A stretch of DNA of 37,491 nt from an uncultured bacterium (lineage in GTDB: Bacteria; AUK180). This document shows, piece by piece, positions 747 through 16,194 of the stretch. The notes beneath the pieces are model-generated. The model saw only the letters and a list, made by a program, of their open reading frames with translations, searched no databases and was not told where the DNA came from. Within the stretch, counting starts at the first letter, position 1; every line of letters begins with the position of its first letter. Location: NCBI GenBank assembly GCA_937863565.1, contig CALMGJ010000019.1:1-37491 (forward strand). Reading direction: 5' to 3'. Made by a program: the position numbers and the translations under genes.

Positions 747-3713
<2,967 letters not shown>

Positions 3714-3743
3714 ATATTTTAATATATCGAAATATTTCGATTT

Positions 3744-3863
3744 ATCCCGGTGATCATGCAAAGGGGAAACACCTGTTCCCATTCCGAACACAGTAGTTAA
3801 GCCCTTTAGCGCTGATGGTACTGCCTGTCTCATCTGGGTGGGAGAGTAGGTCATCACCGGGAT
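3744..3863 (+). rRNA. rrf: 5S rRNA
   Basis: Terminal helix ATCCCGGTGAT/ATCACCGGGAT, CCCATTCCGAAC loop, GATGGTACTG and GGGAGAGTAGG motifs. Confidence 0.97.
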
Positions 3864-3909
3864 TTTTTTTTCATTTTTCACTTTTCACATAACTTTCCGT
3901 ATTATTCTC

Positions 3910-3938
3910 TTGACTAAAAATTAAAAATCGTATATAAG
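3910..3938 (+). promoter_or_regulatory. putative sigma70 promoter for the 3944 gene
   Basis: TTGACT (3910-3915), 17 nt, TATAAG (3933-3938); ATG 5 nt later. Confidence 0.55.
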
Positions 3939-3943
3939 AAATC

Positions 3944-4552
3944 ATGAAAAAATACTGGGTTTACATAATCGGCTTTGCCATATTCGTAGCCATCGTGATC
4001 ATCAGGATGGAATATGCGTTCATCTACGGTTTCTTCACTCTCATCGCCGTATCTTTCTTTCTTGAAAAGAAAAAGTTCTGGGCCTGGATACCCGCGCTTG
4101 CCGTTTCCTGGTTGTGGATCTACATCGCCACAGCAGTATGGAACGCGTATTACGGATATGACGATCTTAAATTCTATATCTTCGGAATAGCCGTATTCCC
4201 GATCGTGACCTGGCCTCTGGGCCTGATGGCGGGATACCTCATCGTAGTCCCTTTCATAAAGATCGAGAACCGCTTCAAGAAATGGATGATGATCTTTCTT
4301 ATCTATGCGGTGGGCTTGATACTTCTGGAATCCGTCGGGCACAATATCATCGGGCTTCATCTACACTATGGCAAACAGTTCCGCGGCTGGCCCGTCCTCA
4401 ACTGCTTCCATTCCCCCCCGTGGATGCAGATAGGATATTTCCTGAACGGATTTGTATTCTACGGTCTTACATCATTTTTAGAGAACACGAAGCTGACCGG
4501 GCCGTACGTGGTAGAGGCCGTAAAAGAACAAACGCCCGATATATCCGCGTAA
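3944..4552 (+). CDS. integral membrane protein of unknown function (about 6 TM)
   Basis: 202 aa, alternating hydrophobic segments; IFGIAVFPIVTW weakly recalls DUF422/lycopene-cyclase-type membrane domains. Confidence 0.75.
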   Translation: MKKYWVYIIGFAIFVAIVIIRMEYAFIYGFFTLIAVSFFLEKKKFWAWIPALAVSWLWIYIATAVWNAYYGYDDLKFYIFGIAVFPIVTWPLGLMAGYLIVVPFIKIENRFKKWMMIFLIYAVGLILLESVGHNIIGLHLHYGKQFRGWPVLNCFHSPPWMQIGYFLNGFVFYGLTSFLENTKLTGPYVVEAVKEQTPDISA

Positions 4553-4612
4553 ATCATATTGCATTCGCCAGTATTATTGATTTAAACCACGCATCTCCTC
4601 CCGCCTGATATA

Positions 4613-4630
4613 CGCGGGATATTTCCCGCG
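4613..4630. other. GC-rich hairpin (possible terminator or operator)
   Basis: CGCGGGA-TATT-TCCCGCG, 7-bp perfect stem between the membrane protein gene and the cyclase promoter; no U-tract. Confidence 0.4.
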
Positions 4631-4654
4631 AAATACAGCTATATTCCATTTCTG

Positions 4655-4683
4655 TTGATTTTTTTCAAAAAAAATAATATACT
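4655..4683 (+). promoter_or_regulatory. putative sigma70 promoter for the cyclase operon
   Basis: TTGATT (4655-4660), 17 nt, TATACT (4678-4683); ATG 6 nt later with no SD. Confidence 0.65.
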
Positions 4684-4689
4684 TCACAC

Positions 4690-7368
4690 ATGAAGAAATC
4701 AGAAACCCGAAAAATTATTGCTCTGGAAAGTTTTGTGCCCCGCAAACTCCTTGAACTCAAACCGGACATTCATTTCGATTCTTTCGCCGGCGCCTTCATG
4801 GTGACGGATATTTCCGGTTTTACGAGGATGAGCGAAGCCCTCACGAAGATCGGTCGCGAAGGTGCCGAGGAATTGACGAAGATGATCAATTTCTACTTCG
4901 TTTCCCTCATTGACAATATCTATGAGCACGGCGGCTATATTTACCGCTTCGGCGGCGATGCCATATATGCTGTATTCGAAGATAAAAAAGGCACTGCTAA
5001 ACAAGATGCGCTCAATTCGGCTGGCAGTATTCAAAAATTCATCAAGAAACATCCCACGATAAAAACGAGCCAGGGCATGGCTTTCGGCATCAGCGTTCAT
5101 ATATCCATCACGTACGGAAAACTCTTCTTCCAGGACCTTAACAATGACTTCTTCATCGGAGGAAAGGTCGGTTTCCATGCGATGAATATCCTTGAGCATG
5201 CCAAAGCCGGCGATATCGTGTGCGACAGCTCCTTCGGCAGCGTGAAATCCGCTGTTTTTGAGAAGATCAAACCCAATGCCTATTTATTGAAGAAGATAAA
5301 GATTGCCGAAAAAGCCTCCGGTGAGAAAATCCCAAAATCAAGCAGGGATCCCGAACCATACCTCCCGGAATGGCTCAGGGAAAGGATCGACCTTAAGCCG
5401 CTGTTCAATGAAAAGGACGGCGAACATAAAAAGGTCGCGATTGGGTTCATTCACATCAACGGGATCGATTTCGACAAAAACCTTCAGAAGGCAGGCGAAC
5501 GGCTCTTCTCTCTTCACGAATACATTCAAGGCATCCTCAAGGACTTCGGCGGCTGGATCAATAAAATAGATCTTTACAAGGACAGCATACGCTATGTGAT
5601 CCTGTTCGGATTCCCGTTCTCTCACGAGGACGATGAAGTGCGCTCGGTCATCGCGGCCTTGAAGATCCTGAAGAGCAATAAGCTCAAGAATGTGGGGGTC
5701 AAGATCGGCCTTAACACCGGTCTTGCTTTCGGTGTTCCCGTAGGCTCAGACAGAAGAAGGGAGTATACGGTCATGGGCGATACAGTGAACCTTGCGGCAA
5801 GGATAGCCGCGGCAGTCCCGTACAATTCCATGTGGGTCTCGAAGACCCTGAAAGAAAAGACCGAACGCGTGATCGAATACGGCAAAAAAGCGGAAAAATC
5901 ATTCAAGGGGAAAAAGGACAAGCACATTATATTCGAAGCCGTGTCCCAGCAAGCCGAGGGCAGCAGGGAATCGCTGATCTCCGAATGGGTCTCGCAGAGC
6001 GATAAGCTTGTAGGCAGGGACAAGGAGATAAAGACATTCCTGAAATCACGGGACATGGCCAAGGACGGAAAAACAAGGATCTTCGGTGTAATGGGTGAAG
6101 CCGGAGTTGGTAAATCGAGATTCTCTGAAGAAATATTCAAGCTCACCAAGGAGGATTTCAGCACATATCTGGGCAGCTGTATTTCCTACGGCACCTCCCT
6201 CTCGTATTACCCGTTCATCGAGATCATCAATAAGATCGCGGATATCCAGCGCGAAGATACTCAGGATAAAAAGAAAGAGAAAATATCGGCGCTGATGAAG
6301 AAAGTGAATAAAAAATATACTGACTTTCTACCCATCCTCGGCGAAGTGCTTGGTCTCGATTTCAAGGAGACGGAGATCTCCAAATATCTTGATTCTAAGA
6401 TGAAGAAGGAGAATTTCTTCATGATGGTCGGGGATATGATGAAGTATATCGCCTCGAAAAAACCCACTATGATCGTATTCGAGGACATACACTGGATCGA
6501 TTCGCTTTCGCTTGAGCTTCTTCAGTATCTGACAAGGAACATCAAGGATAAAAAACTTCTCTTCCTTATCCTGTTCCGCCCGATAGAGAAAAAATACGAA
6601 TTCATGGAATACGATAATTTCGTACTGATACATCTCAAAGAACTATCCAAAGAGGATACCATCGAGCTCGTTTACAATCTCCTCAGCGTGAAAAAGATGT
6701 CGGACGAGATAAAGAACCTCATCGTCACAAAGTCGCAGGGTAACCCGTTCTATGTTGAAGAGATCATTAAATCCATGGTTGAACAGAAGATCATCCTCAA
6801 GGAAGGTAAGCACTACACGTTCAACGAGAAGATCAAAAAGATCAATATCCCCGATAATGTCGAAGGCGTTATCGTGGGCAGAATAGACCGCCTTGACCTG
6901 AAGGAACGCGATGTTCTGCAGACGGCATCGGTGCTGGGAAGGGAATTCGATGAAGACATCCTGAGGGGTATCTATAAGAATAACGATATACTGGACAACT
7001 CGCTTTCCGTCCTGTACAAGCTCGATCTCATCCGTCTTGATGAATCATCTAAAAGGCCGAAGTACTTCTTCAAGCACATCCTCACGAAAGAGGTCGCCTA
7101 CGATACGATGTCGTTCCAGAAGAAAAGAGAACTTCACGAGATGGCCGGTTCTTTCATAGAGAAGAAATACAAGGCCGGCATCGAGGAATTCTTCGGCATC
7201 CTTTCCTATCACTACTATGAAGCGAAAAAGTACGAGAAAGCAATGGTCTTCTCCGTGAAAGCGGGTGAAAAGGCGAAGAATGTCTACGCGAACTATGAAG
7301 CAATAGATTTCTTCACAAGAGCGATAGAATCGTATAAGGAACTGGAAAGGATATCGAAGAAAAAATAG
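4690..7368 (+). CDS. class III adenylate cyclase (tandem C1/C2, soluble-AC-like) fused to STAND/AAA_16 NTPase
   Basis: C1 metal Asp motifs TDISGFT and RFGGDA; C2 NKID and EYTVMGDTVNLAARI; LVGRDKE, Walker A GEAGVGKS, Walker B IVFEDIHWID, GNPFY, RIDRL, FFKH winged helix; only the first TPR-like helices before the stop. Confidence 0.93.
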   Translation: MKKSETRKIIALESFVPRKLLELKPDIHFDSFAGAFMVTDISGFTRMSEALTKIGREGAEELTKMINFYFVSLIDNIYEHGGYIYRFGGDAIYAVFEDKKGTAKQDALNSAGSIQKFIKKHPTIKTSQGMAFGISVHISITYGKLFFQDLNNDFFIGGKVGFHAMNILEHAKAGDIVCDSSFGSVKSAVFEKIKPNAYLLKKIKIAEKASGEKIPKSSRDPEPYLPEWLRERIDLKPLFNEKDGEHKKVAIGFIHINGIDFDKNLQKAGERLFSLHEYIQGILKDFGGWINKIDLYKDSIRYVILFGFPFSHEDDEVRSVIAALKILKSNKLKNVGVKIGLNTGLAFGVPVGSDRRREYTVMGDTVNLAARIAAAVPYNSMWVSKTLKEKTERVIEYGKKAEKSFKGKKDKHIIFEAVSQQAEGSRESLISEWVSQSDKLVGRDKEIKTFLKSRDMAKDGKTRIFGVMGEAGVGKSRFSEEIFKLTKEDFSTYLGSCISYGTSLSYYPFIEIINKIADIQREDTQDKKKEKISALMKKVNKKYTDFLPILGEVLGLDFKETEISKYLDSKMKKENFFMMVGDMMKYIASKKPTMIVFEDIHWIDSLSLELLQYLTRNIKDKKLLFLILFRPIEKKYEFMEYDNFVLIHLKELSKEDTIELVYNLLSVKKMSDEIKNLIVTKSQGNPFYVEEIIKSMVEQKIILKEGKHYTFNEKIKKINIPDNVEGVIVGRIDRLDLKERDVLQTASVLGREFDEDILRGIYKNNDILDNSLSVLYKLDLIRLDESSKRPKYFFKHILTKEVAYDTMSFQKKRELHEMAGSFIEKKYKAGIEEFFGILSYHYYEAKKYEKAMVFSVKAGEKAKNVYANYEAIDFFTRAIESYKELERISKKK

Positions 7369-7493
7369 TCCCTCCCGTCCGCCGGAAAGGACCGTCCGCC
7401 GCGGACCTCAATTATAAGGCGCTCTATGACCGCGCGCTTCTTTATCTTCTTATAGGGAAAAGCGGTCCGGCGCTTGCCGACGCCCGGAACTTC

Positions 7494-8993
7494 ATGACGT
7501 ACGCGCAAAGGAAAAGTTCGCCATCGCGTATCGCTCGCGCCCACTATCTTAATGCCCAGATATTCACAACCCTCTCCCGTTTTTCGGAGGCGCTCGACCA
7601 TATTTCCCTGGCTTACGGGCACTATAAAGGAACCGGCGCACGCAATCAGATGAGCAATTGCCTTATATTGAAAGGCACCGTATTCATGAGAAGCGGTCAT
7701 CACGATGACGCATACCGGGAGTTCATGAAAGCGCTCTCGATGTTCCGCAGCATACGCGATCTCCACAATATAGCCGCGACATATTCGAATATCTCCGTTT
7801 ACTTCCACGAGAAGTGGCAAAATGAAAAAGCCGTGAAGCTCACCGAAAAGGCCCTTGCCTATTTCCGTAAAGTGAATAATAAAAAGGAGATCCAGACTTC
7901 CCTTAACAATCTGGGCACATACTTCCAATATCTGGGAAAGTTCGAAGAATCGCTGGCGCATTTTGAAAAAGCCCTTGCTATTTCCACGGAGATAATGGAC
8001 CTAAATGCGGAGCATAGCATCCACTGCAATCTGGGGAGCCTGCTGCTTAACCGCGCTCTTTACGGTAAAGCGGAACAGCAATTCAGGATCGCGCTTGAAC
8101 TCTCTAAAAGAACGGACAACGCCAATTCCGAGGCGATTGCATGCCAAAATATCGGCAATGTGCGTTTCTATCTTTCCGATTATACGGGCGCCTCCGGCTT
8201 CTTCACCCGCGCTGCGCGAATATTCGAGACACTGGGAAATATGAGCGAACTGGTCTCTGTATACTCGAATCTCGGCGCCGTAAAATTGATGATCGGAGAT
8301 ATGGCCGGAGCGGCGAAGTACCTGGAAAGATCTCTTGAACTCGCCCTGAAAAGCGGTCTGAAGAATTATGCCGCAAGTACGCTGAACAATCTTTCCTTTT
8401 GCGTATTCTATACAGGCGATATCAAAAAAAGCATTGATTGTCAAAAAAGAGCTGTAAAGATCAATGAAAGCATCGGGGACAGGGAATCTCTCGCCTTTAA
8501 TTATAATGCTTTATCCCAGTTCCTTCTTGATTCGGGATTTTGCGAAAAAGCCATCGGTTTCTCCGACCGGGCGCTGAGGATAGCAACGGAGCTCGGACTT
8601 CAGCATAATCTTATGAAGATCTATGTTCAGAGGGCGAGATATCATCTTGCAACGGGGAATATCCCAAAAGCAGAACAGGATGCCGGGACGGCTCTGGAGA
8701 TGGCCTCTAAATTGAATTCGGCCAAGGACAGAGGTATCGTTAACTGCGTTCTCGGTGAGATCCTCCTCTCGAAAGGGCGGCTGCAGGCGGCCATAAAGAG
8801 GTTAAAAGCATCTCTATCTTCCTTGAAAAAGGTGGGGGATAAATATCACCTGGCCAGAGCCTGCTATTTTATGTCCGCGGCGCTTGCGAAGGCCGGGAAC
8901 GGGACAGAGAGCTCCGGTTTCAGAAGAATGAGCAAAAACTTTTTCGGGGCCATAGGCGGCATGTTCTGGTTTAAAAAACTCAATGGACGATAA
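7494..8993 (+). CDS. TPR repeat protein 1 (reading frame open and coding-like from 7338; first ATG 7494)
   Basis: Repeated NLG..Y...G.Y..A...F.KAL motifs (SLNNLGTYFQYLGKFEESLAHFEKAL, YSNLGAVKLMIGDMAGAAKYLERSL). True start uncertain. Confidence 0.88.
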   Translation: MTYAQRKSSPSRIARAHYLNAQIFTTLSRFSEALDHISLAYGHYKGTGARNQMSNCLILKGTVFMRSGHHDDAYREFMKALSMFRSIRDLHNIAATYSNISVYFHEKWQNEKAVKLTEKALAYFRKVNNKKEIQTSLNNLGTYFQYLGKFEESLAHFEKALAISTEIMDLNAEHSIHCNLGSLLLNRALYGKAEQQFRIALELSKRTDNANSEAIACQNIGNVRFYLSDYTGASGFFTRAARIFETLGNMSELVSVYSNLGAVKLMIGDMAGAAKYLERSLELALKSGLKNYAASTLNNLSFCVFYTGDIKKSIDCQKRAVKINESIGDRESLAFNYNALSQFLLDSGFCEKAIGFSDRALRIATELGLQHNLMKIYVQRARYHLATGNIPKAEQDAGTALEMASKLNSAKDRGIVNCVLGEILLSKGRLQAAIKRLKASLSSLKKVGDKYHLARACYFMSAALAKAGNGTESSGFRRMSKNFFGAIGGMFWFKKLNGR

Positions 8994-10374
8994 GATCTTC
9001 AAATTGTTCATTGCCGCTCTCAAGAACAGGGCTGCCGTTTACGAATTTACCGGAAACTACAAGGCATGTGTTGCGGATATACGGACAGGGATAACCGCTT
9101 TAGAACGAAGGAAAAGGCTGGATCCGGACGCCGTGATGGGCCTGAAGACGGACCTTGCGGACATGGCTCTTCATATGGAAGGGAACGTAAAGAAAGCGGC
9201 ATCTATATTGAATGAGGCGGAAAAAACGGTCCCGGGGATCTCCGGAGAAGCGGCCGCGTACAAGGACAATATTCTGGGCATCATCAGATGGCAAGAGGGG
9301 AGATTCGATGAAGCGCTGGCCTGTCTGGGCCGGACGCTTTCCTTCTATAAGCGGCGGGGCGAGAAGTCCGGGATATCAAATACTCTAAATAATATGGCGA
9401 TGGTGAGCGAGAACAAAGGCGACATTAAAATGGCCGTGAAATATCTGCGCGCTGCCCTTGATATACAGAAAAAAGTCAAGAACAAAAGAGGGATCTGCGT
9501 GATGTCCGTCAATCTCGGCAACAACCTTGTCTCTCTCAACCGTTATGAAGAAGCGGAAGCATATTTCAACGAAGTGATAAGGATCAGCGGACGTATCGGA
9601 TTTAAAAGAGCCGAAGGCCTCGCATCAAATGCATTGGGAGGGATGTATTCCAATAAGGGCGACCTGAAGCGAGCTCTCTTTTATTATGAGAAAAGCCTTA
9701 AAGTGGCGGAGGAAACGGGCAGTGCCCAGCGTACGGGTATAGCATATAACAATATCGCCATCGTTCACACACAAACGGGGAGATATGAAAAAGCGCTCGA
9801 ATACTATAAGAAGAATCTCGAGATATCGGAGAAGCTCGAATCGGACAATATGAGATCGTATTCCTATATCAATCTGGCTTCGGCCTGTCTCGATATGAAC
9901 ATGACGAAGGAAGGCGCTTTCTATCTCGGTAAAGCGGCCGGCATCGTCAATGCAAGCGGTAATAAGGCTCAACTTGTCGATGTGCATACGACATATTCAG
10001 ATCTCCACATCCGCCGCCGCGAATTCGGAAAAGCGCTGAAGCGCGCCGTTATGGCCTTGGAACTCACCAATGAGATCGGGCTAGAGGAGAGACGGCCCTT
10101 CGTTCTTCGGAACCTCGGGCTCTGTCAACTCCGTTTCGATAGAATGAAGGCGGAGGAATGTTTCATCCGGTCGCTGAACGTCGCGCTGAAGGCGGGGATG
10201 CTCCTTGACTCGGCCTATGCCGGTTACGAACTGGGAAAAATGTATTCGTTAGACAAAAGAAAGAAAAGGCAGGCCGCGAAATATCTTCAAGATGCCCAAA
10301 GCATTTTTGAAAAGAATGGAATAAAAATACATTCAAAAGAGATAAAGGGCATCCTGAAAAAACTTAAGCGCTGA
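8983..10374 (+). CDS. TPR repeat protein 2
   Basis: TPR motifs (SNALGGMYSNKGDLKRALFYYEKSL, YNNIAIVHTQTGRYEKALEYYKKNL); 11-nt overlap with the upstream gene. Confidence 0.92.
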   Translation: MDDKIFKLFIAALKNRAAVYEFTGNYKACVADIRTGITALERRKRLDPDAVMGLKTDLADMALHMEGNVKKAASILNEAEKTVPGISGEAAAYKDNILGIIRWQEGRFDEALACLGRTLSFYKRRGEKSGISNTLNNMAMVSENKGDIKMAVKYLRAALDIQKKVKNKRGICVMSVNLGNNLVSLNRYEEAEAYFNEVIRISGRIGFKRAEGLASNALGGMYSNKGDLKRALFYYEKSLKVAEETGSAQRTGIAYNNIAIVHTQTGRYEKALEYYKKNLEISEKLESDNMRSYSYINLASACLDMNMTKEGAFYLGKAAGIVNASGNKAQLVDVHTTYSDLHIRRREFGKALKRAVMALELTNEIGLEERRPFVLRNLGLCQLRFDRMKAEECFIRSLNVALKAGMLLDSAYAGYELGKMYSLDKRKKRQAAKYLQDAQSIFEKNGIKIHSKEIKGILKKLKR

Positions 10375-10435
10375 TGCCCGCACCAGCCCACCGGACACAT
10401 TTATTGCAAAGGGCGGATCACGAAAATCATCCGTA

Positions 10436-10464
10436 TTGACTTTTGAAAACCGGAGTGCTATAAT
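10436..10464 (+). promoter_or_regulatory. near-consensus sigma70 promoter with extended -10
   Basis: TTGACT (10436-10441), 17 nt, TATAAT (10459-10464) preceded by TGC. Confidence 0.75.
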
Positions 10465-10471
10465 AACGCAA

Positions 10472-10618
10472 ATGAAGGAAGGGCTCTTCTCAAACACCGA
10501 ATTGAAAATGTTAGACATTGGCATAATTATTGCCAATCAATCAATGTCTTTCTTTTATAAGAAATATCTTCCTGTATTTATTGCTTTCCAAGAACAAATA
10601 CGCGAAAGTATTATATGA
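10472..10618 (+). CDS. possible leaderless small ORF, 48 aa
   Basis: ATG 7 nt after TATAAT; MKEGLFSNTELK...RESII; no recognisable family, may be untranslated leader. Confidence 0.25.
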   Translation: MKEGLFSNTELKMLDIGIIIANQSMSFFYKKYLPVFIAFQEQIRESII

Positions 10619-10662
10619 CGGCCCGGTTTAGCGGAACTCCTTTTGAAATGCTTTCACTCAGG

Positions 10663-10698
10663 GAAAGCCGTTCTTTCAAAGAAAGCTGTTCTTTCAAA
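10663..10698 (+). repeat. 18-bp tandem repeat, two copies
   Basis: GAAAGCCGTTCTTTCAAA then GAAAGCTGTTCTTTCAAA (17/18 identical), about 30 nt upstream of the 10728 start. Confidence 0.85.
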
Positions 10699-10727
10699 GA
10701 TCGCTCAAAAAACAAAAGGAGGTTAAA

Positions 10728-11444
10728 ATGAAAAGATATTTCAGATCGTTTGCTTTAGTTTTATGTGCTATGTTCATTGTCTTCTCGGGCTGCTCCGAAC
10801 AAGCTGAGATGCCGACAGTACCCGCAGAGGGAAAGATGACCATCATTTCGCCTGCATCAGAAGATCGTGAATGCTCGACTTGGACGGAAGAAGAATTGAA
10901 TGAATATGCAGAGAGCATCCTGTCGGGTAGGAAGGAAGATTGTGTGCAGATTAAAAAGCTGATACAAGAAGATAAATGTTTCCGCAAATGGTTCAATACA
11001 AAGGTTCATAATGCATTAGAAACAGGAGAGATTATCCCGACATATCACAAAGAATGGATAAGGACGAAAATAAGTAATTATCTTCCGGAGAAAAGCAATA
11101 AAGACGGTAATGAACATTGCTTCAATGGAGATCAAGAAAAACTTACTGATTGGGTAATCACAATTCTCAGACGCGGAAATGCAGATGAAATTATTAATAA
11201 GGCTGAAAATAATCCCTGCTTTATAAAATGGCTTTCAATGATATCGGACATTCCGTTAAATCCGTATTTTGGGGGCGGGATCACTAAAGTTACTCTTGAC
11301 GAAATCCCCCTAAATTGGTTGAAATGTCCCCTTGTATGCCCCGAAGGAACATATTGCGTTGCATATATTCTTATAGTATATTATGAAAACAGGGATCCCA
11401 TAAGAACAGAACCCTGGTATGCATGCGACCCGATTTATATTTAA
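10728..11444 (+). CDS. Cys-rich lipoprotein of unknown function
   Basis: SD AAGGAGG; signal peptide ending FSGC; nine further Cys; internal duplication. Confidence 0.8.
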   Translation: MKRYFRSFALVLCAMFIVFSGCSEQAEMPTVPAEGKMTIISPASEDRECSTWTEEELNEYAESILSGRKEDCVQIKKLIQEDKCFRKWFNTKVHNALETGEIIPTYHKEWIRTKISNYLPEKSNKDGNEHCFNGDQEKLTDWVITILRRGNADEIINKAENNPCFIKWLSMISDIPLNPYFGGGITKVTLDEIPLNWLKCPLVCPEGTYCVAYILIVYYENRDPIRTEPWYACDPIYI

Positions 11445-11460
11445 CCGGGAGGTCATCATT

Positions 11461-12351
11461 ATGAAAAGATGGATAATATTGCTGGCAATACTATGCCTAT
11501 CATTCCCGATTGTAGCAGAAAAAATTACAATAGATGAGAATAAAGCCGAGATTGTTATCACCGACAATGTAATTCCTATTGTATATCGGGGCAGTACCTG
11601 CAGCGCGAAATTCTTTCCGGACACGATCCTGGAAATAACGAAGATATTTAAAAGAATAATCGAATATTATCCGGATGCAGATTTCAAGAAGATAAGCCAC
11701 CTCATTAACGAAGAAAACCCCATCATCATAGCTGAGATCGCGCCTGCTCCGGTCAGAGGGAAATATGGTTTAATTAAAGAATATAAAGGCGAACCGCTTA
11801 TGATGACCTCTATTATTTTCTATCATGTCAAAGGGATATTGGATATGAGTACCAGTTGGATGAATACAGATATTATTTTGTCGCACCTCATTTTATTCAA
11901 CGGGGATCTTGCATTATTCGAAAAGATGATATATGAATTCATCTCTTTTAACATTGCGTTGACCGAGGTTAAGGGGGCGCCATATAACCAGTATTACACC
12001 CTGTCGGAGTATTTCGATATGATCGAATTGCACAAGAAAGACATCCGATTTATAAGTGAAACGGACAAAAACGCAAGCGGCATCCTTGTAAATACCTATA
12101 TTCGCGGCAGTATCTTACCTGTTGTGCTCTATTTGCAGAAGGTTGGCAGTAAAGGATCTGATGAAATAATTGAAGTGCTGTTAAACGAATATCAAAGGCT
12201 AAATGCAAAAAAGAAAGTAAGGCAAAAAGATATCAGAGCTAGCCTTAACAGGATATTCGGGATTGACATTTGGCCAATAATGTTGGATTTTGAAAAATTC
12301 TGGGATGATAATAAAAACATACTTTGGGAACACATTTTAGAAGAATTATAA
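11461..12351 (+). CDS. exported protein, possibly a degenerate gluzincin/M1-like fold
   Basis: SD GGGAGG (11447-11452) favours ATG 11461 over 11419; signal peptide MKRWIILLAILCLSFPIVA. Confidence 0.75.
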   Translation: MKRWIILLAILCLSFPIVAEKITIDENKAEIVITDNVIPIVYRGSTCSAKFFPDTILEITKIFKRIIEYYPDADFKKISHLINEENPIIIAEIAPAPVRGKYGLIKEYKGEPLMMTSIIFYHVKGILDMSTSWMNTDIILSHLILFNGDLALFEKMIYEFISFNIALTEVKGAPYNQYYTLSEYFDMIELHKKDIRFISETDKNASGILVNTYIRGSILPVVLYLQKVGSKGSDEIIEVLLNEYQRLNAKKKVRQKDIRASLNRIFGIDIWPIMLDFEKFWDDNKNILWEHILEEL

Positions 12352-12501
12352 AAGAATAAGTACGATAATTAGCAAAATTTACCGGAGAGGGGAAGTATCT
12401 AAAAGTGTGCTGCGGGACACTGCGAAGATCCGGGCTCGGGAGCTCTTGAAAGCCGCGAAGGAAAAAGCCCGGGCAAAAGTCTGAAAAATCAGGGAAATTA
12501 T

Positions 12502-12530
12502 TTGTATTAACGGGCAAAATATGCTAAAAT
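12502..12530 (+). promoter_or_regulatory. putative sigma70 promoter of the oxidative-stress operon
   Basis: TTGTAT (12502-12507), 17 nt, TAAAAT (12525-12530) preceded by TGC; SD AAGGAG at 12543-12548. Confidence 0.6.
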
Positions 12531-12553
12531 TACATACAACCTAAGGAGTTGTG

Positions 12554-13723
12554 TTGAAGGCCGTCAAGATCAAGGACAATGTTTACTGGGTCGGAGCCGT
12601 CGACTGGACACTTCGGAATTTCCACGGCTATGTAACGGAAAGCGGGTCCACCTATAATGCATATCTCATAACCGGTGAAAAGAATATCCTTATCGATACC
12701 GTAAAAGCGCATCTGTTCGAGGAAATGTCGGCCCGCATCAAAACGGTGATCCCTCTTGAAAAGCTAGATCTTCTCATTTCGAATCATGTGGAGATGGACC
12801 ATTCGGGAGGCATCCCGGAGCTTTTGAAGGCAGTCCCCGGGCTTAAGGTACTGACCTCTCCGCAGGGTGTGGCAGGTCTGAAACTCCACTACGGGGAAGA
12901 GCTGAACTGCGAACCGGCGCCTCCCGGCTACAAGCTCGATGCAGGCAGATACCGGTTCTCCTTTCTTCCGACGCCGATGGTACACTGGCCCGACAATATG
13001 CTTACATATCTCGAAGAGGAGAAGATACTATTTTCAAACGATGCTTTCGGACAACACTATGCCTCATCCGGACGCTTCGATGATGAAGTATGCCTCCACA
13101 AAGCGCTTGCCGAAGCTAAGAAATATTATGCGAACATCGTCCTTCCTTACGGCAAACAAGTGCGCGACGCGCTTGCGGCCGCATCGAAACTCGATATCAA
13201 GACCATCGCCCCGAGTCACGGCATCATCTGGCGCGGACAAATACCGGAAATACTAAAACGGTACGGGAAGTGGTCCGCCTATGAGAACGACGGGTCGGCC
13301 TGCATCGTTTACGATTCGATGTGGCATTCCACCGAGAAAATGGCCCGTGCGGCATATGCGGGTTTCGTAAGGGCCGGTATAAAAACGCGGATATTCGATC
13401 TGAAATGTGATCATATATCCAATATTATGACCGATGTCATGACGGCGAAATATCTGGCCGTGGGTTCGCCCACCCTCAACAATAATATGCTCCCGACTGC
13501 CGCGGCTTTTTTAACATATATGAAAGGGCTCGCCCCTCAGGGAAAAACGGTCTTTGCTTTCGGAAGCTACGGGTGGGGCGGACAGAGCGTCGCGCAGGTT
13601 GAAGAGATTTTCAAAGAGCTTAAATTTGAAACGCTACTGCCTGGGGTCCGCATCAAGTACATTCCGGGAGAAGAAGAACTAAAAAAGATAGAGAACGCCA
13701 TTTACGAAAAAATAAAAAAATAG
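12554..13723 (+). CDS. fprA: flavodiiron protein (A-type flavoprotein, O2/NO reductase)
   Basis: GSTYNAYLI, NHVEMDHSG, HWPD, FSNDAFGQH, APSHG, flavodoxin YDSMWHSTE and FGSYGWGG; TTG 12554 is better spaced from the SD than GTG 12551. Confidence 0.96.
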   Translation: MKAVKIKDNVYWVGAVDWTLRNFHGYVTESGSTYNAYLITGEKNILIDTVKAHLFEEMSARIKTVIPLEKLDLLISNHVEMDHSGGIPELLKAVPGLKVLTSPQGVAGLKLHYGEELNCEPAPPGYKLDAGRYRFSFLPTPMVHWPDNMLTYLEEEKILFSNDAFGQHYASSGRFDDEVCLHKALAEAKKYYANIVLPYGKQVRDALAAASKLDIKTIAPSHGIIWRGQIPEILKRYGKWSAYENDGSACIVYDSMWHSTEKMARAAYAGFVRAGIKTRIFDLKCDHISNIMTDVMTAKYLAVGSPTLNNNMLPTAAAFLTYMKGLAPQGKTVFAFGSYGWGGQSVAQVEEIFKELKFETLLPGVRIKYIPGEEELKKIENAIYEKIKK

Positions 13724-13731
13724 GAGGATAT

Positions 13732-14226
13732 ATGATCTCAAAAGAGATGGAAAAAACGATCAATGAACAGATCAAATTCGAGTTTTATTCGGGCTATGTG
13801 TATCTTGCCATGGCCGCATATTTCGATGCCAATGATCTGCCGGGTTTTGCCGCGTGGTTCAAAGCACAATCGCAGGAAGAGTACAAACATGCGATGCGTT
13901 TCTATGATTATGTCTATGAACGGGGCGGTAAAGTCGCACTTGAGGCCATCGATAAGCCGAAAAGCGATTATAAATCGCTCAAGGACATCATCGAGATGGC
14001 GCTCCATCACGAGGAAGCGGTCACCCGGCTCATATACAAGATGGTTGAACTTGCCCGCGAAATGAAGGATTATATGACGGAGAATATGCTTGCCTGGTTC
14101 GTTGCGGAACAGGTGGAGGAAGAAGCGAATATGCAGACCCTCTTGAACAGACTGGAAAGAGTGAAGGATTCCGGGAACGGACTTATCATGCTGGATAAAG
14201 AGCTCGGAAAAAGAAAGGAAGGTTAG
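13732..14226 (+). CDS. ftnA: non-heme ferritin
   Basis: NEQIKFEFYS..YLAMA, EEYKHAMRF, WFVAEQVEEE, LDKELG; SD AGGAGG. Confidence 0.95.
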   Translation: MISKEMEKTINEQIKFEFYSGYVYLAMAAYFDANDLPGFAAWFKAQSQEEYKHAMRFYDYVYERGGKVALEAIDKPKSDYKSLKDIIEMALHHEEAVTRLIYKMVELAREMKDYMTENMLAWFVAEQVEEEANMQTLLNRLERVKDSGNGLIMLDKELGKRKEG

Positions 14227-14237
14227 GGAGGCATGCT

Positions 14238-14621
14238 ATGGCGAAATTAAGAGAACTGTTCAAATGTAATGTGTGCGGCCATATCGTTTTGATCGTCAAT
14301 GAAGGTGCCGGGACGCTCGTATGCTGCGGACAGAACATGGAACACCTTGCCGAAAAGACGGAAGACCAGGGAAATGAAAAACATGTGCCCATTATCGAAA
14401 AGGCGGATGCCGGCATCATCGTTAAGGTTGGAAGCGTGCCCCATCCGATGGAGGAAAAACATTTCATCAATTTCATAGAAGTGATCACGACCTGCGGGAA
14501 AAGCTCGATCGCGCATCTCAAACCCGGCGATAAGCCCGAGGTGAAATTCTGCGTTCCCTACGATAAAGTGGCCTTTGTAAGGGAATACTGCAATCTTCAC
14601 GGCCTCTGGAAGAGCAGATAG
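14238..14621 (+). CDS. dfx: desulfoferrodoxin (2Fe superoxide reductase)
   Basis: CNVCG...LVCCG desulforedoxin domain; EKHVP, HPMEEKHFI, CNLHGLW active-site motifs. Confidence 0.96.
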   Translation: MAKLRELFKCNVCGHIVLIVNEGAGTLVCCGQNMEHLAEKTEDQGNEKHVPIIEKADAGIIVKVGSVPHPMEEKHFINFIEVITTCGKSSIAHLKPGDKPEVKFCVPYDKVAFVREYCNLHGLWKSR

Positions 14622-15158
14622 ATGGATAAGTCCGCTCTGTACAAGATTGGCTACGGCATCTATATCGTTTCCTCGGAAAAGGAAGGCAAATACAATGCTC
14701 AGACGGCGAACACGGTATTCCAGATCACGTCCGATCCGCCGAGAGTGGCTGTTTCCATAAATAAAAGCAATCTTACGTGGGAATACATCAAGGCTTCCGG
14801 TAGATTCGGAGTATCCGTCGTGGCACAGGATGCTCCGCTTAAAATGATCGGACGTTTCGGCTTCAGAAGCGGAAGGGAACTTGATAAATTTGAGGGTATT
14901 TCTCATAAATTGAGCGAAACGATGAAGTTGCCCGTCATTATGGAAAATACGGTTGGGTATTTCGAGGCGGAAGTAGAAGGGGAGTACGATGCGGGAACCC
15001 ATACCGTATTCTTCGGCATCGTAAAGGATTCTTTTGCTATCTCGGATGCGGAACCGATAAGCTACGCTTATTATCACAAAGTGAAAAAGGGGAATGAGCC
15101 GAAGACCGCCCCCACTTTCAGGGCAGAAGAAAAAAATAAAGGAGTGAACAATGGATAA
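14622..15158 (+). CDS. flavin reductase family protein (like the N-terminal domain of Hrb)
   Basis: [51 protein letters not shown]. Confidence 0.92.
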
Positions 15159-15315
15159 ATACGTGTGCGAAGTATGCGGGTATACTTATGATCCCGCGGA
15201 CGGTGACGAGGACGGGAAGATCGCGCCGGGAACGGCTTTCGAAGACCTTCCGGACGATTGGGTCTGCCCGGTCTGCGGCGTTGGCAAAGACCAGTTCAAG
15301 AAGATGGAAGAGTAA
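15151..15315 (+). CDS. rubredoxin, 54 aa (absent from the ORF track)
   Basis: Hand translation: [54 protein letters not shown]; two CxxCG motifs; SD AAGGAG at 15139-15144. Confidence 0.97.
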
Positions 15316-15320
15316 AAAAA

Positions 15321-15800
15321 ATGACGGACCTTTGCGAAATAGTGCTTGATGCCATAAGAGCGGAAATAGAATCAATGAAATTCTACGAAAAGCTTGCGGC
15401 GGCAACGAAGAACTTTCTTCTGAGAGATAAACTCGCGTTTCTTGCCAGCGAGGAGAACTCGCATAAAAGAACGCTCCACAAATTGCTCCGTGACATCGCT
15501 CCGGAAAAAACGGAGGGATACGAGAACAGGATCGCGGGAATACTTGCGGAAGAATTTAAAGAACCTTTCGAAGGGACGGTCTCGGACCTTCTTTTCAAAG
15601 CCGCCGATTTTGAAAAGCGTTCTTCGGATTTCTACAGGGAGAAGGCTAAGCTTTTTGAGAAAGAAGGTCAGAAGATGATCTTTTTCTACTTAAGCGTATT
15701 AGAGGACGAGCACTATGCGATCCTGATGAAGCAGTACGGATTCTATAAAGAGAACGAGAAATTCGAGGATTACAATGAATTTATACATCTCGGACCATAA
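15321..15800 (+). CDS. rubrerythrin-like ferritin-superfamily diiron protein (no rubredoxin domain)
   Basis: AIRAEIESMKFY, EENSH, FEKRSSDFY, EDEH; ATG 15321 follows the rubredoxin stop. Confidence 0.88.
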   Translation: MTDLCEIVLDAIRAEIESMKFYEKLAAATKNFLLRDKLAFLASEENSHKRTLHKLLRDIAPEKTEGYENRIAGILAEEFKEPFEGTVSDLLFKAADFEKRSSDFYREKAKLFEKEGQKMIFFYLSVLEDEHYAILMKQYGFYKENEKFEDYNEFIHLGP

Positions 15801-15816
15801 AAGAGGGGGGTAGAAA

Positions 15817-16194
15817 ATGGAAGAAAAGAAAAAAATACTCATCATCGATGATGAAAAGGACGTCGTTGATCTCTGCAAGGACATCCTTGAAGGGGAGGGT
15901 TTCGAGGTCGATTACGCTCTGACGGGCAAGGAAGGGATAAAGAAAACGCTTCAGCATGATTATGAGCTGATACTTCTTGATATCATGCTCCCGGAGATGG
16001 ACGGCTGGGAGATCATCGAAGTGCTGCGGCTGAACGAGAAAACCAAAATGATCCCGATCGCCATGTTCACGGCAAAAACGGAGTTCAAGAACAAGATACT
16101 CGGCATTCAACAGGGCGCAATCGATTATATCACCAAACCTTTCAGCCCCGAAGAGATCATCTACAGGGTTAAACGCATCCTGAACGAGGCATGA
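15817..16194 (+). CDS. single-domain response regulator (receiver)
   Basis: ILIIDDE, LLDIMLPEMDG, FTAK, DYITKPFS; no output domain. Confidence 0.95.
   Translation: MEEKKKILIIDDEKDVVDLCKDILEGEGFEVDYALTGKEGIKKTLQHDYELILLDIMLPEMDGWEIIEVLRLNEKTKMIPIAMFTAKTEFKNKILGIQQGAIDYITKPFSPEEIIYRVKRILNEA

Follow-up and report, generated by a model that had tools for sequence, protein, structure and literature searches.

A cyclase-STAND core gene and its two TPR neighbors

The window analyzed here is a 37,491-nucleotide (nt) stretch of DNA that forms one contig (C19) in the assembly of an uncultured WOR-3 bacterium (2.27 Mb, 95.5% complete). On its forward strand, a core gene with cyclase and STAND NTPase domains (ORF1, 4690..7368, 892 residues) is followed by two open reading frames (ORFs) that encode only tetratricopeptide repeats (TPRs). 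The first of these, module a (ORF2), is open for 551 codons at 7338..8993 in the −1 frame relative to ORF1, whose end it overlaps by 30 nt; its first ATG, at 7494, would give a protein of 499 residues. Module b (ORF3, 8983..10374, 463 residues) begins with an ATG and overlaps the end of ORF2 by 11 nt. An earlier note on this DNA had proposed a single cAMP-producing core served by two interchangeable TPR sensors, which would be supplied in cis by frameshifting or in trans. The wholly computational analysis described below points to a naturally split STAND cyclase with docking TPR sensors, a reading that, taken as a whole, we consider a little more probable than its denial.

The cyclase and NTPase domains of ORF1 are both recognized by Pfam, with Guanylate_cyc matching residues 246–410 and AAA_16 residues 439–625 (E 1.9e-18), together with a weak match to NB-ARC. 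A second, N-terminal cyclase domain aligns with the C1 domain of human soluble adenylyl cyclase (sAC). In the AlphaFold2 (AF2) model of the protein (mean predicted local distance difference test score, pLDDT, 86.9; predicted template modeling score 0.79), C1 spans residues 29–203 (nt 4774–5298) and C2 residues 245–420 (nt 5422–5949). A disordered linker leads from C2 to the STAND NTPase, whose nucleotide-binding, helical and winged-helix domains (NBD-HD-WHD) occupy residues 444–805 (nt 6019–7104) according to the model and Foldseek, and a two-hairpin arm of four helices (residues 809–891, nt 7114–7362) ends the protein. The top sequence match in the Protein Data Bank is human ADCY10 (E 6.4e-24), in two stretches (query residues 29–104 and 219–377) that cover C1 and C2. 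The top Foldseek match is 4clp (E 8.8e-26, TM score 0.76 normalized to the target, 468 columns), and the C-terminal half of the model matches Apaf-1, CED-4 and the PH0952 STAND-TPR structure 6mfv. The protein scores 212.3 bits against TIGR03903 (TOMM system kinase/cyclase fusion protein), far below the cut-off of 705.75. The agreement of domain matches, sAC alignment and model supports an sAC-like C1-C2 cyclase joined to a STAND-type NTPase, and bears out the description in the earlier note of a tandem cyclase and STAND NTPase that stop just after the first TPR helices.

In cyclases of this class, a pair of aspartates binds metal, an asparagine and an arginine act at the transition state, and a lysine with a threonine or aspartate selects ATP. 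The DISGFT, GDA, INK, EYTV and VNLAAR motifs of ORF1 align with identical residues of sAC. The catalytic and P-loop residues D40, D90, N367, R371, K475, S476 and D599 are kept in all 37 aligned orthologues, and the Walker A segment (G469–R477) and the Walker B aspartate (D599) are invariant among them. K292 and T360, which align with INK and EYTV of sAC, are also present in ORF1. The putative product of the core is cAMP. The chain ends 87 residues past the WHD and holds no repeat sensor. In PH0952, the WHD is followed by an arm described as three hairpins (PMC6468293) and then by the TPR sensor; with its two hairpins, ORF1 thus stops within or just after the arm.

ORF2 and ORF3 consist of TPRs throughout (Pfam TPR_12 and TPR_MalT). 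Their identity is 22.6%, and they run collinear from the point where residue 28 in the frame of ORF2 pairs with residue 12 of ORF3, so that two divergent all-TPR genes in the same register are indeed present, with the correction that ORF2 has its first helix before any ATG, GTG or TTG. The closest relative of ORF3 is a TPR-only gene that lies upstream of the core in another genome (G001), with 29% identity over the full length.

A promoter and terminator scan of 4300–10800 gave counts near shuffle expectation, and serves as weak context only. It placed no forward-strand terminator between ORF1, ORF2 and ORF3, and the only good promoter-like site (10436–10464, 11/12 with a TG) lies after ORF3.

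A conserved break point and a shared N-terminal motif

Orthologues of ORF1 in seven relatives (38%–46% identity) are encoded in frames of 880–969 residues and end at the same position on the query; paralogues (27%–31% identity) have frames of 1100–1450 residues. Among the matches listed from a set of 5.8 billion proteins, 53 of the 56 clusters with E ≤1e-210 are 865–966 residues long, and the three fused clusters measure 1459, 1244 and 1230 residues. In the fused forms, the chain continues across a Lys-rich linker to the TPR motif (for example, ...FFTRAVESYEKLEKDKKQKRIELFISVLKARGEIYNLIG).

To place the break in its genomic setting, 80 loci were fetched from species-representative genomes and 48 were examined (the window, L026–L072 minus L070, and L078). 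The main group comprises 42 loci, namely the 40-row clade of the tree described below plus L063 and L078, which were added by identity. Homologues are not always single fused genes: 36 of the 42 are short and 6 are fused. A TPR-only gene begins within 150 nt downstream on the same strand in 24 of the 36 short loci. The next gene is another cyclase-STAND paralogue in two, and the flank is too short to judge in four (L033, L048, L055 and L058). The neighborhood survey suggested in the earlier note thus returned a conserved break point with a variable number of adjacent TPR-only genes, which ranges from 0 to 5 and is at least two at 13 loci. Up to three full TPR-only genes plus fragments are found at L031 and L036 and three at L041; at L042 and L052 there is one on each side of the core, and at L058 there are two upstream.

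The junctions between core and TPR genes are of several kinds. ATGA overlaps are found at L049 and L053 and other short overlaps elsewhere; an in-frame stop is followed by an ATG or TTG within a few codons at L038, L042, L046, L052 and L071; the others are gaps of 40–140 nt. As read from the sequences, such a mix of junctions looks like that of separate genes that are coupled. The recurrence of one break point at dozens of orthologous loci puts the arrangement far beyond chance. Sequencing error as a general cause of the split was considered and rejected, since independently assembled genomes as a rule have the short form.

A quick maximum-likelihood tree was computed from 51 rows, 6 of them fused outgroups and the other 45 cores, and several long branches were flagged in it; L063, L069 and L078 fell outside it through the length filter. 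Five fused orthologues fall inside the short clade (SH-aLRT 99). Four of these form a group whose sister (100) consists of short forms, among them two, L038 and L042, with the in-frame stop junction, and the fused L057 (1233 residues) is sister (SH-aLRT 100) to the short L053 of the same assembly. Given the fused outgroups, one fission followed by two re-fusions would be the most parsimonious history, and re-fusion would mark the downstream TPR protein as the cognate sensor.

Some loci have features of their own. L053, a short core with two TPR-only genes, and the fused L057 lie on two contigs of one assembly. The L063 orthologue (6935–9730, 48% identity) is spread over three frames of 136, 290 and 553 residues and is followed by an intact TPR-only gene; this core is either a pseudogene or the product of poor assembly. 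At L023 (G002:C3, 162–7961), a short core, a full fused paralogue (1271 residues) and a motif-bearing TPR-only gene follow one another, and a short ORF between core and paralogue looks, by eye, like a winged-helix regulator.

The TPR-only proteins share a characteristic N terminus, in which the initial methionine and 5–12 residues are followed by LLxxALxGRAEVYxLIGxxxxAxxD. A regular expression for this motif is matched by 36 of 43 TPR-only ORFs, with an ATG, GTG or TTG just upstream in 35 of the 36. When 31 of the 43 are aligned, conservation peaks in the motif window (2.39 bits versus a mean of 1.89). Pairwise identity over the whole proteins averages 26%; the cores are 39%–46% identical to that of the window. 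In the window, a hidden Markov model (HMM) of the motif matches ORF3 at 8983–9102 (E 4.6e-13) and the ORF2 frame at 7404–7514 (E 2.4e-5), where the first helix starts at approximately 7398. Together with the complex model described below, this conservation suggests that the motif may be the docking element of the TPR-only proteins.

The motif is widely used in the genome of the window. A scan with the motif HMM of 2611 ORFs of at least 150 residues, in which the motif had to lie within the first 60 residues with an independent E value <0.01, returned 27 TPR-only ORFs (264–634 residues) on 13 contigs. Addition of the ORF2 region upstream of its ATG raises the number to 28, and all 28 align on the motif, with 27.9% pairwise identity in the motif window against 20.4% in the rest of the proteins. 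Of the two alternative sensors proposed in the earlier note, the detachment from the core therefore holds, and the number two is an understatement, given approximately 28 motif-bearing TPR-only genes. The six fused paralogues in this genome score no more than 8 bits for the N-terminal motif. An HMM of the arm finds a C-terminal match in ORF1 only (126 bits), the next best being internal and scoring 49 bits, and among the seven STAND proteins of the family in the genome, ORF1 is the only one with fewer than 100 residues past the WHD (87 versus at least 495).

Beyond this genome, a 46-position profile of the motif (E ≤0.01) has 35 matches in the genome of the window and 5–18 in each of the six other family members; all seven genomes have strong matches that span the whole motif. 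The 0–6 matches per genome in 32 genomes of other phyla are all weak and cover part of the motif, from model position 12 onward at the earliest (best E 1.2e-6). In each of five genomes where a short core comes with a TPR array, 3–11 matches reach E ≤1e-4, some of them in TPR-only genes on other contigs. None of the four genomes known only by a fused orthologue had a strong match outside the fused protein, an additional short core not having been searched for there. Of the genomes with a short core and no adjacent TPR gene, G053 and G054 hold a strong TPR-only match each at another place, and the match in G055 lies in an open frame of 956 residues. Apart from the fused proteins themselves, strong matches were thus confined to genomes with a short core among those searched. 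This co-occurrence fits a functional tie between the core and the TPR proteins. A search of the 5.8-billion protein set with the motif profile gave 20 matches; the candidates had been chosen by shared words, and this count is uninformative on the range of the family.

Predicted docking of TPR modules and the ORF1/ORF2 junction

The last two helices of the core (residues 849–891, 7234..7362) are proposed to form the docking surface, or socket, for the TPR modules. Few parts of the protein are conserved as highly, and S855, V856, G859, A862, N868, A871 and Y882 do not vary among the 37 aligned orthologues. Residues 640–892 of the core were modeled in complex with ORF3, with an alignment supplied for each, alongside three controls. 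The core-ORF3 complex scored 0.71, 0.71 and 0.69, and the best control 0.00; 58 of 80 solved complexes reach the mark set for this score, as do 2 of 110 mismatched pairs. The core-ORF3 runs share at least 85% of their contacts, with a partner pLDDT of at least 86. In the predicted interface, core residues 849–889 contact residues 1–23 of ORF3 (plus 168 and 204–206), which places the invariant helices against the motif. The complex model, which the earlier note had proposed as a check, thus supports binding of ORF3 to the core in trans.

These results suggest a split STAND adenylyl cyclase in which the core would provide cyclase, NTPase and a short arm and the sensor would come from separate, all-TPR proteins. 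The N-terminal hairpin of a TPR protein would stack on the two invariant helices that end the core and so rebuild, non-covalently, the arm-sensor junction that is part of a single polypeptide in fused relatives. If MalT, PH0952 and Apaf-1 are a guide, the docked protein would keep the NTPase closed until a ligand binds, upon which the core would open, multimerize and make cAMP, to be read by the cyclic nucleotide monophosphate (cNMP)-binding proteins of the genome. Domain make-up, conserved break, variable TPR arrays, shared motif, co-occurrence and predicted interface are computed features, from which binding in cells, regulation, the cAMP product and the exchangeability of the modules are inferred. 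With one socket and some 28 plug-type TPR proteins, two of them encoded beside the core, the modules might compete, and one cyclase might integrate many inputs. The broadest form of the proposal, a trans-assembled modular NLR-like receptor whose hub is completed by any of approximately 28 divergent TPR plug-ins from many loci, is possible but on balance doubtful.

Several observations weigh against a split receptor. In the genome of the window, 24 of the 27 motif-bearing ORFs have no STAND gene within 6 kb. In itself the motif is a TPR hairpin, and some fused paralogues contain weaker internal matches to it. Adjacent TPR genes are absent in 6 of the 36 short loci (L034, L035, L037, L044, L047 and L051), and a distant sister clade of cores (35%–38% identity, approximately 960 residues, with a C-terminal extension) is without a TPR neighbor, which suggests that the core may work alone. 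In two of the five genomes searched that have a short core and no adjacent TPR gene (G051 and G052), a TPR-only match to the motif is absent. The co-occurrence of motif and core is confounded by shared ancestry and by the choice of genome groups according to core architecture. As the partners in the complex model are the halves of a split gene, and their TPR-on-TPR stacking is like that of the solved 6mfv, the passing score may reflect likeness rather than binding in trans. At the active site, position 292 is Lys in 24 and Ala in 11 of the 37 members of the orthogroup, and position 360 is Thr in 27 and Ala in 10; with Ala at both positions in about one third of the orthologues, and with all other catalytic residues invariant, the nucleotide product may differ within the clade.

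One group of motif-bearing genes has a neighbor of another kind. On contig C28 (L106, G000:C28:56000–75999, at approximately 7804–12871 on the minus strand), a 713-residue Clp-like double AAA+ ATPase (AAA, AAA_lid_9 and AAA_2) heads an operon of overlapping genes in which two TPR-only genes come next (468 and 516 residues), the second of them with the motif, and more motif genes lie nearby. This operon and the distant loci suggest that some of the motif-bearing TPR proteins may serve other partners.

Alternatively, the TPR-only proteins could be ordinary scaffold- or chaperone-type proteins with no functional tie to the cyclase, next to a self-sufficient short core. The short loci and the sister clade that have no TPR neighbor, the two genomes without a TPR-only match, the dispersal of most plug-type ORFs and the cluster beside the Clp-like ATPase all agree with such an explanation. 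It does not readily account for the 24 of 36 short loci at which core and TPR gene are neighbors on one strand, some of them overlapping by ATGA or in other ways, for the re-fusions nested in the tree or for the match between the motif and the arm-sensor junction of fused orthologues. The invariance of the socket, the complex model with its clean controls and the phyletic co-occurrence of motif and short core also argue against it, and we consider it rather unlikely.

The junction of ORF1 and ORF2 is unusual. It reads AAG AAA AAA TAG (7357..7368; GAAG-AAAAAA-TAG), with a run of six adenines at 7360–7365 and the TAG stop of ORF1, which is overlapped as ATAG by an ATA codon (7365–7367) in the frame of ORF2. 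One extra base between 7338 and 7365 would give an in-frame ORF1-ORF2 fusion of approximately 1,437 residues, as follows from the frame arithmetic (1 versus 0 mod 3). ORF2 is also the only one of the 36 ORFs with the regular-expression motif that has no ATG, GTG or TTG before it. The model of the whole open frame (pLDDT 91.5) shows helices from residue 21 onward, and the first ATG (residue 53) lies inside the second helix (42–58), so that a start at 7494 would fall in the middle of a repeat. ORF2 from this ATG as a complete protein was for this reason rejected as the whole story, the start lying within the second helix of a regular solenoid. Expression of ORF2 may instead use non-canonical initiation or re-initiation, for example at the ATA at 7365, in a geometry similar to the ATGA overlaps of L049 and L053, and a truncated product from 7494 may also be made.

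The junction may also be the scar of a fusion. ORF1 and ORF2 could be, or could recently have been, one fused gene of approximately 1,437 residues, perhaps itself the result of re-fusion, that was broken by the loss of a base in the A run, through mutation or assembly error. ORF2 would then be unmade or made by rare slippage, and ORF3 would be the only true trans module; the family-wide split would not be affected. The missing start codon and the −1 overlap at the A run, where a single base would restore the fusion, are what such a break would leave behind. Moreover, the fused orthologues have a Lys-rich and hence A-rich linker at exactly the same place, the window is weakly placed (SH-aLRT 80) as sister to an 8-row clade that holds four fused forms, and the region before the ATG is homologous to the family N terminus and is modeled as an ordered helix. 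On the other hand, ORF1 stops where most orthologues end (SYEKLEGK[KI] and then the stop), and ORF2 is still open for 551 codons. One further genome, G005, shares an A6-TAA junction with the TPR gene in the −1 frame, which would be a coincidence if the two were independent errors, although this gene has a TTG ten codons before the motif. A broken fusion at this one locus is a serious candidate, to which we nevertheless give somewhat less credence than to its contrary.

Alternatively, the A run could be a site of programmed recoding, by −1 ribosomal frameshifting or transcriptional slippage, that yields both the short core and a long core-TPR fusion, in parallel to the tau and gamma products of dnaX or the long and short isoforms of sAC. 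A tRNA-Lys can re-pair from AAA at 7363–7365 to AAA at 7362–7364 with the stop codon in the A site, and the lack of a canonical start in ORF2 and the A6-TAR junction with a −1 TPR gene in G005 would agree with this. However, G AAA AAA followed by TAG is an imperfect version of the slippery heptamer X XXY YYZ, leaving P-site slippage on AAA AAA as a possibility, and a run of six adenines is short for efficient transcriptional slippage. The RNA downstream (7350–7470) folds no better than shuffled sequences (z 0.32; 126 of 200 fold at least as well) and thus offers no stimulatory structure. Nor is the site conserved: among the loci compared, only G005 combines A6-TAR with a −1 TPR gene, the others having varied junctions and canonical starts (35 of the 36 motif ORFs), and in G003 the A run is present with no TPR in the 112 nt that remain downstream on the contig. 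Programmed recoding is therefore quite improbable. Of the two routes of sensor supply in the earlier note, the one in trans stands for ORF3, through gene coupling, re-fusions and the complex model; the frameshift in cis could apply to ORF2 at most, there being neither an RNA structure nor a conserved slippery site.

Signaling context and relation to known receptors

An rRNA operon lies directly upstream of the core, with the 3′ end of the 16S gene (1–481), tRNA genes at 531–604 and 610–682, the 23S gene (747–3715) and the 5S gene (3746–3862). The ORFs at 3195–3881, 3914–4360 and 3008–3307 lie on or beside the 23S and 5S genes and are probably not genes; for the flanking ORFs within 3195–4552, Pfam and NCBIfam give no family. 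Downstream of ORF3, these databases likewise give no family for two overlapping ORFs in 10728–12351 (238 and 310 residues), which sit in the lowest G+C of the window (0.378 at 11001–12000). They are followed by an oxidative-stress cluster (12551–16194, all on the forward strand) that encodes a flavodiiron-type protein (ODP lactamase and flavodoxin), ferritin, desulfoferrodoxin, a flavin reductase and a rubrerythrin-like protein.

Possible receivers of a cyclic nucleotide are present elsewhere in the genome, in which six cNMP-binding domains exceed the Pfam cut-off. One of them (G000:C38:77402–77650, in a 225-residue frame) lies 84 nt downstream of the ORF of a fused cyclase-STAND-TPR paralogue (C38:73938–77318), and this protein is likely to be a local cAMP receiver.

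Phage ligands were among those considered in the earlier note, and an antiphage system in which an Avs-like STAND protein senses phage proteins through diversified TPRs and signals by a cyclic nucleotide would fit the rapid divergence of the repeats (26% identity among the TPR modules versus 39%–46% between the cores and that of the window). PADLOC also reports weak PycC-like matches for the cyclase (best E 2.1e-10). The same PADLOC search gave no match to Avs or other STAND defense models, and its TPR matches are generic. No cognate effector gene is adjacent to the core, the neighbors being the rRNA operon, oxidative-stress genes and ORFs without a Pfam family; the gene is inherited throughout a family of WOR-3 genomes, and the cyclase has the Lys/Thr pair of sAC, to which a role in substrate choice is assigned, at the aligned positions. 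An antiphage role is thus very unlikely, and the claim of phage sensing found no backing beyond these weak matches. The weak PADLOC matches, the neighboring genes and the cNMP-binding domains point instead to housekeeping cAMP signaling.

The accepted picture of a STAND or NLR receptor is one polypeptide whose repeat sensor keeps the NTPase closed as long as no ligand is bound. In Mycobacterium tuberculosis, Rv0386, Rv1358 and Rv2488c combine cyclase and STAND ATPase with a helix-turn-helix domain at the end; in the naturally split Rv0891c/Rv0890c pair, the split is said to fall between cyclase and ATPase rather than between arm and sensor, and an array of alternative modules is not described. 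In the plant NRC network, diversified sensor NLRs feed a few helper hubs, and sensors and helpers are each complete NLRs. The likeness to the present system is conceptual only, as the sensors here are bare repeats and there is no homology beyond the STAND fold. Fused, TIGR03903-like cyclase-AAA_16-TPR proteins (1100–1450 residues; Chloroflexota, Herpetosiphon and the paralogues in the genome of the window) have the same domain order and 27%–31% identity to ORF1. They differ in being single chains, and those of this genome score no more than 8 bits for the motif and 49 bits for the arm.

Escherichia coli MalT and Pyrococcus PH0952 (6mfv) resemble the proposed assembly in the order of NBD-HD-WHD, TPR-like arm and TPR sensor, and TPR_MalT is found in both ORF2 and ORF3. 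In those proteins arm and sensor form one chain, whereas ORF1 closes with its second arm hairpin and the sensor is a protein of its own; the effector of MalT is a DNA-binding domain and that of the present protein a cyclase. Human sAC shares the tandem C1-C2 core, with the five motifs identical. Its short form arises by exon skipping and loses the whole NTPase; ORF1 is cut after the arm and keeps the NTPase, with the repeats in separate genes. We know of no plug-in modules for sAC.

In receptors of the MalT/PH0952 type, the helices of arm and sensor are described as packing together and both contact the NBD to autoinhibit the protein (PMC6468293). For full-length mammalian sAC (sACfl), a STAND domain with a P-loop is predicted, and the C-terminal regulatory part is missing from a shorter isoform; no regulator that acts through the STAND region is reported to have been found (PMC12802110). 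In the text of a survey of bacterial STANDs (Nature, 2026), split proteins are mentioned in the methods only. A literature search, with supplements and subscription journals outside its scope, found no description of such a split-cyclase/TPR arrangement. New here are the conserved arm-sensor fission, the plug and socket motifs, the variable TPR arrays and the repertoire of approximately 28 members; the parts are of known kinds.

If the separate, docking sensor is real, it would offer a natural system in which to study how arm and sensor control the NTPase switch and how sensors are exchanged on one hub. The same system could show what regulates the unexplained STAND region of sAC-type cyclases, and it suggests a design for modular biosensors with one cAMP output and swappable TPR inputs. 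For the bacterium and its family, a receptor that is completed by many plug-ins, if true, would mean that one second-messenger output integrates many ligands, and that sensors can be gained, lost or re-fused without altering the hub.

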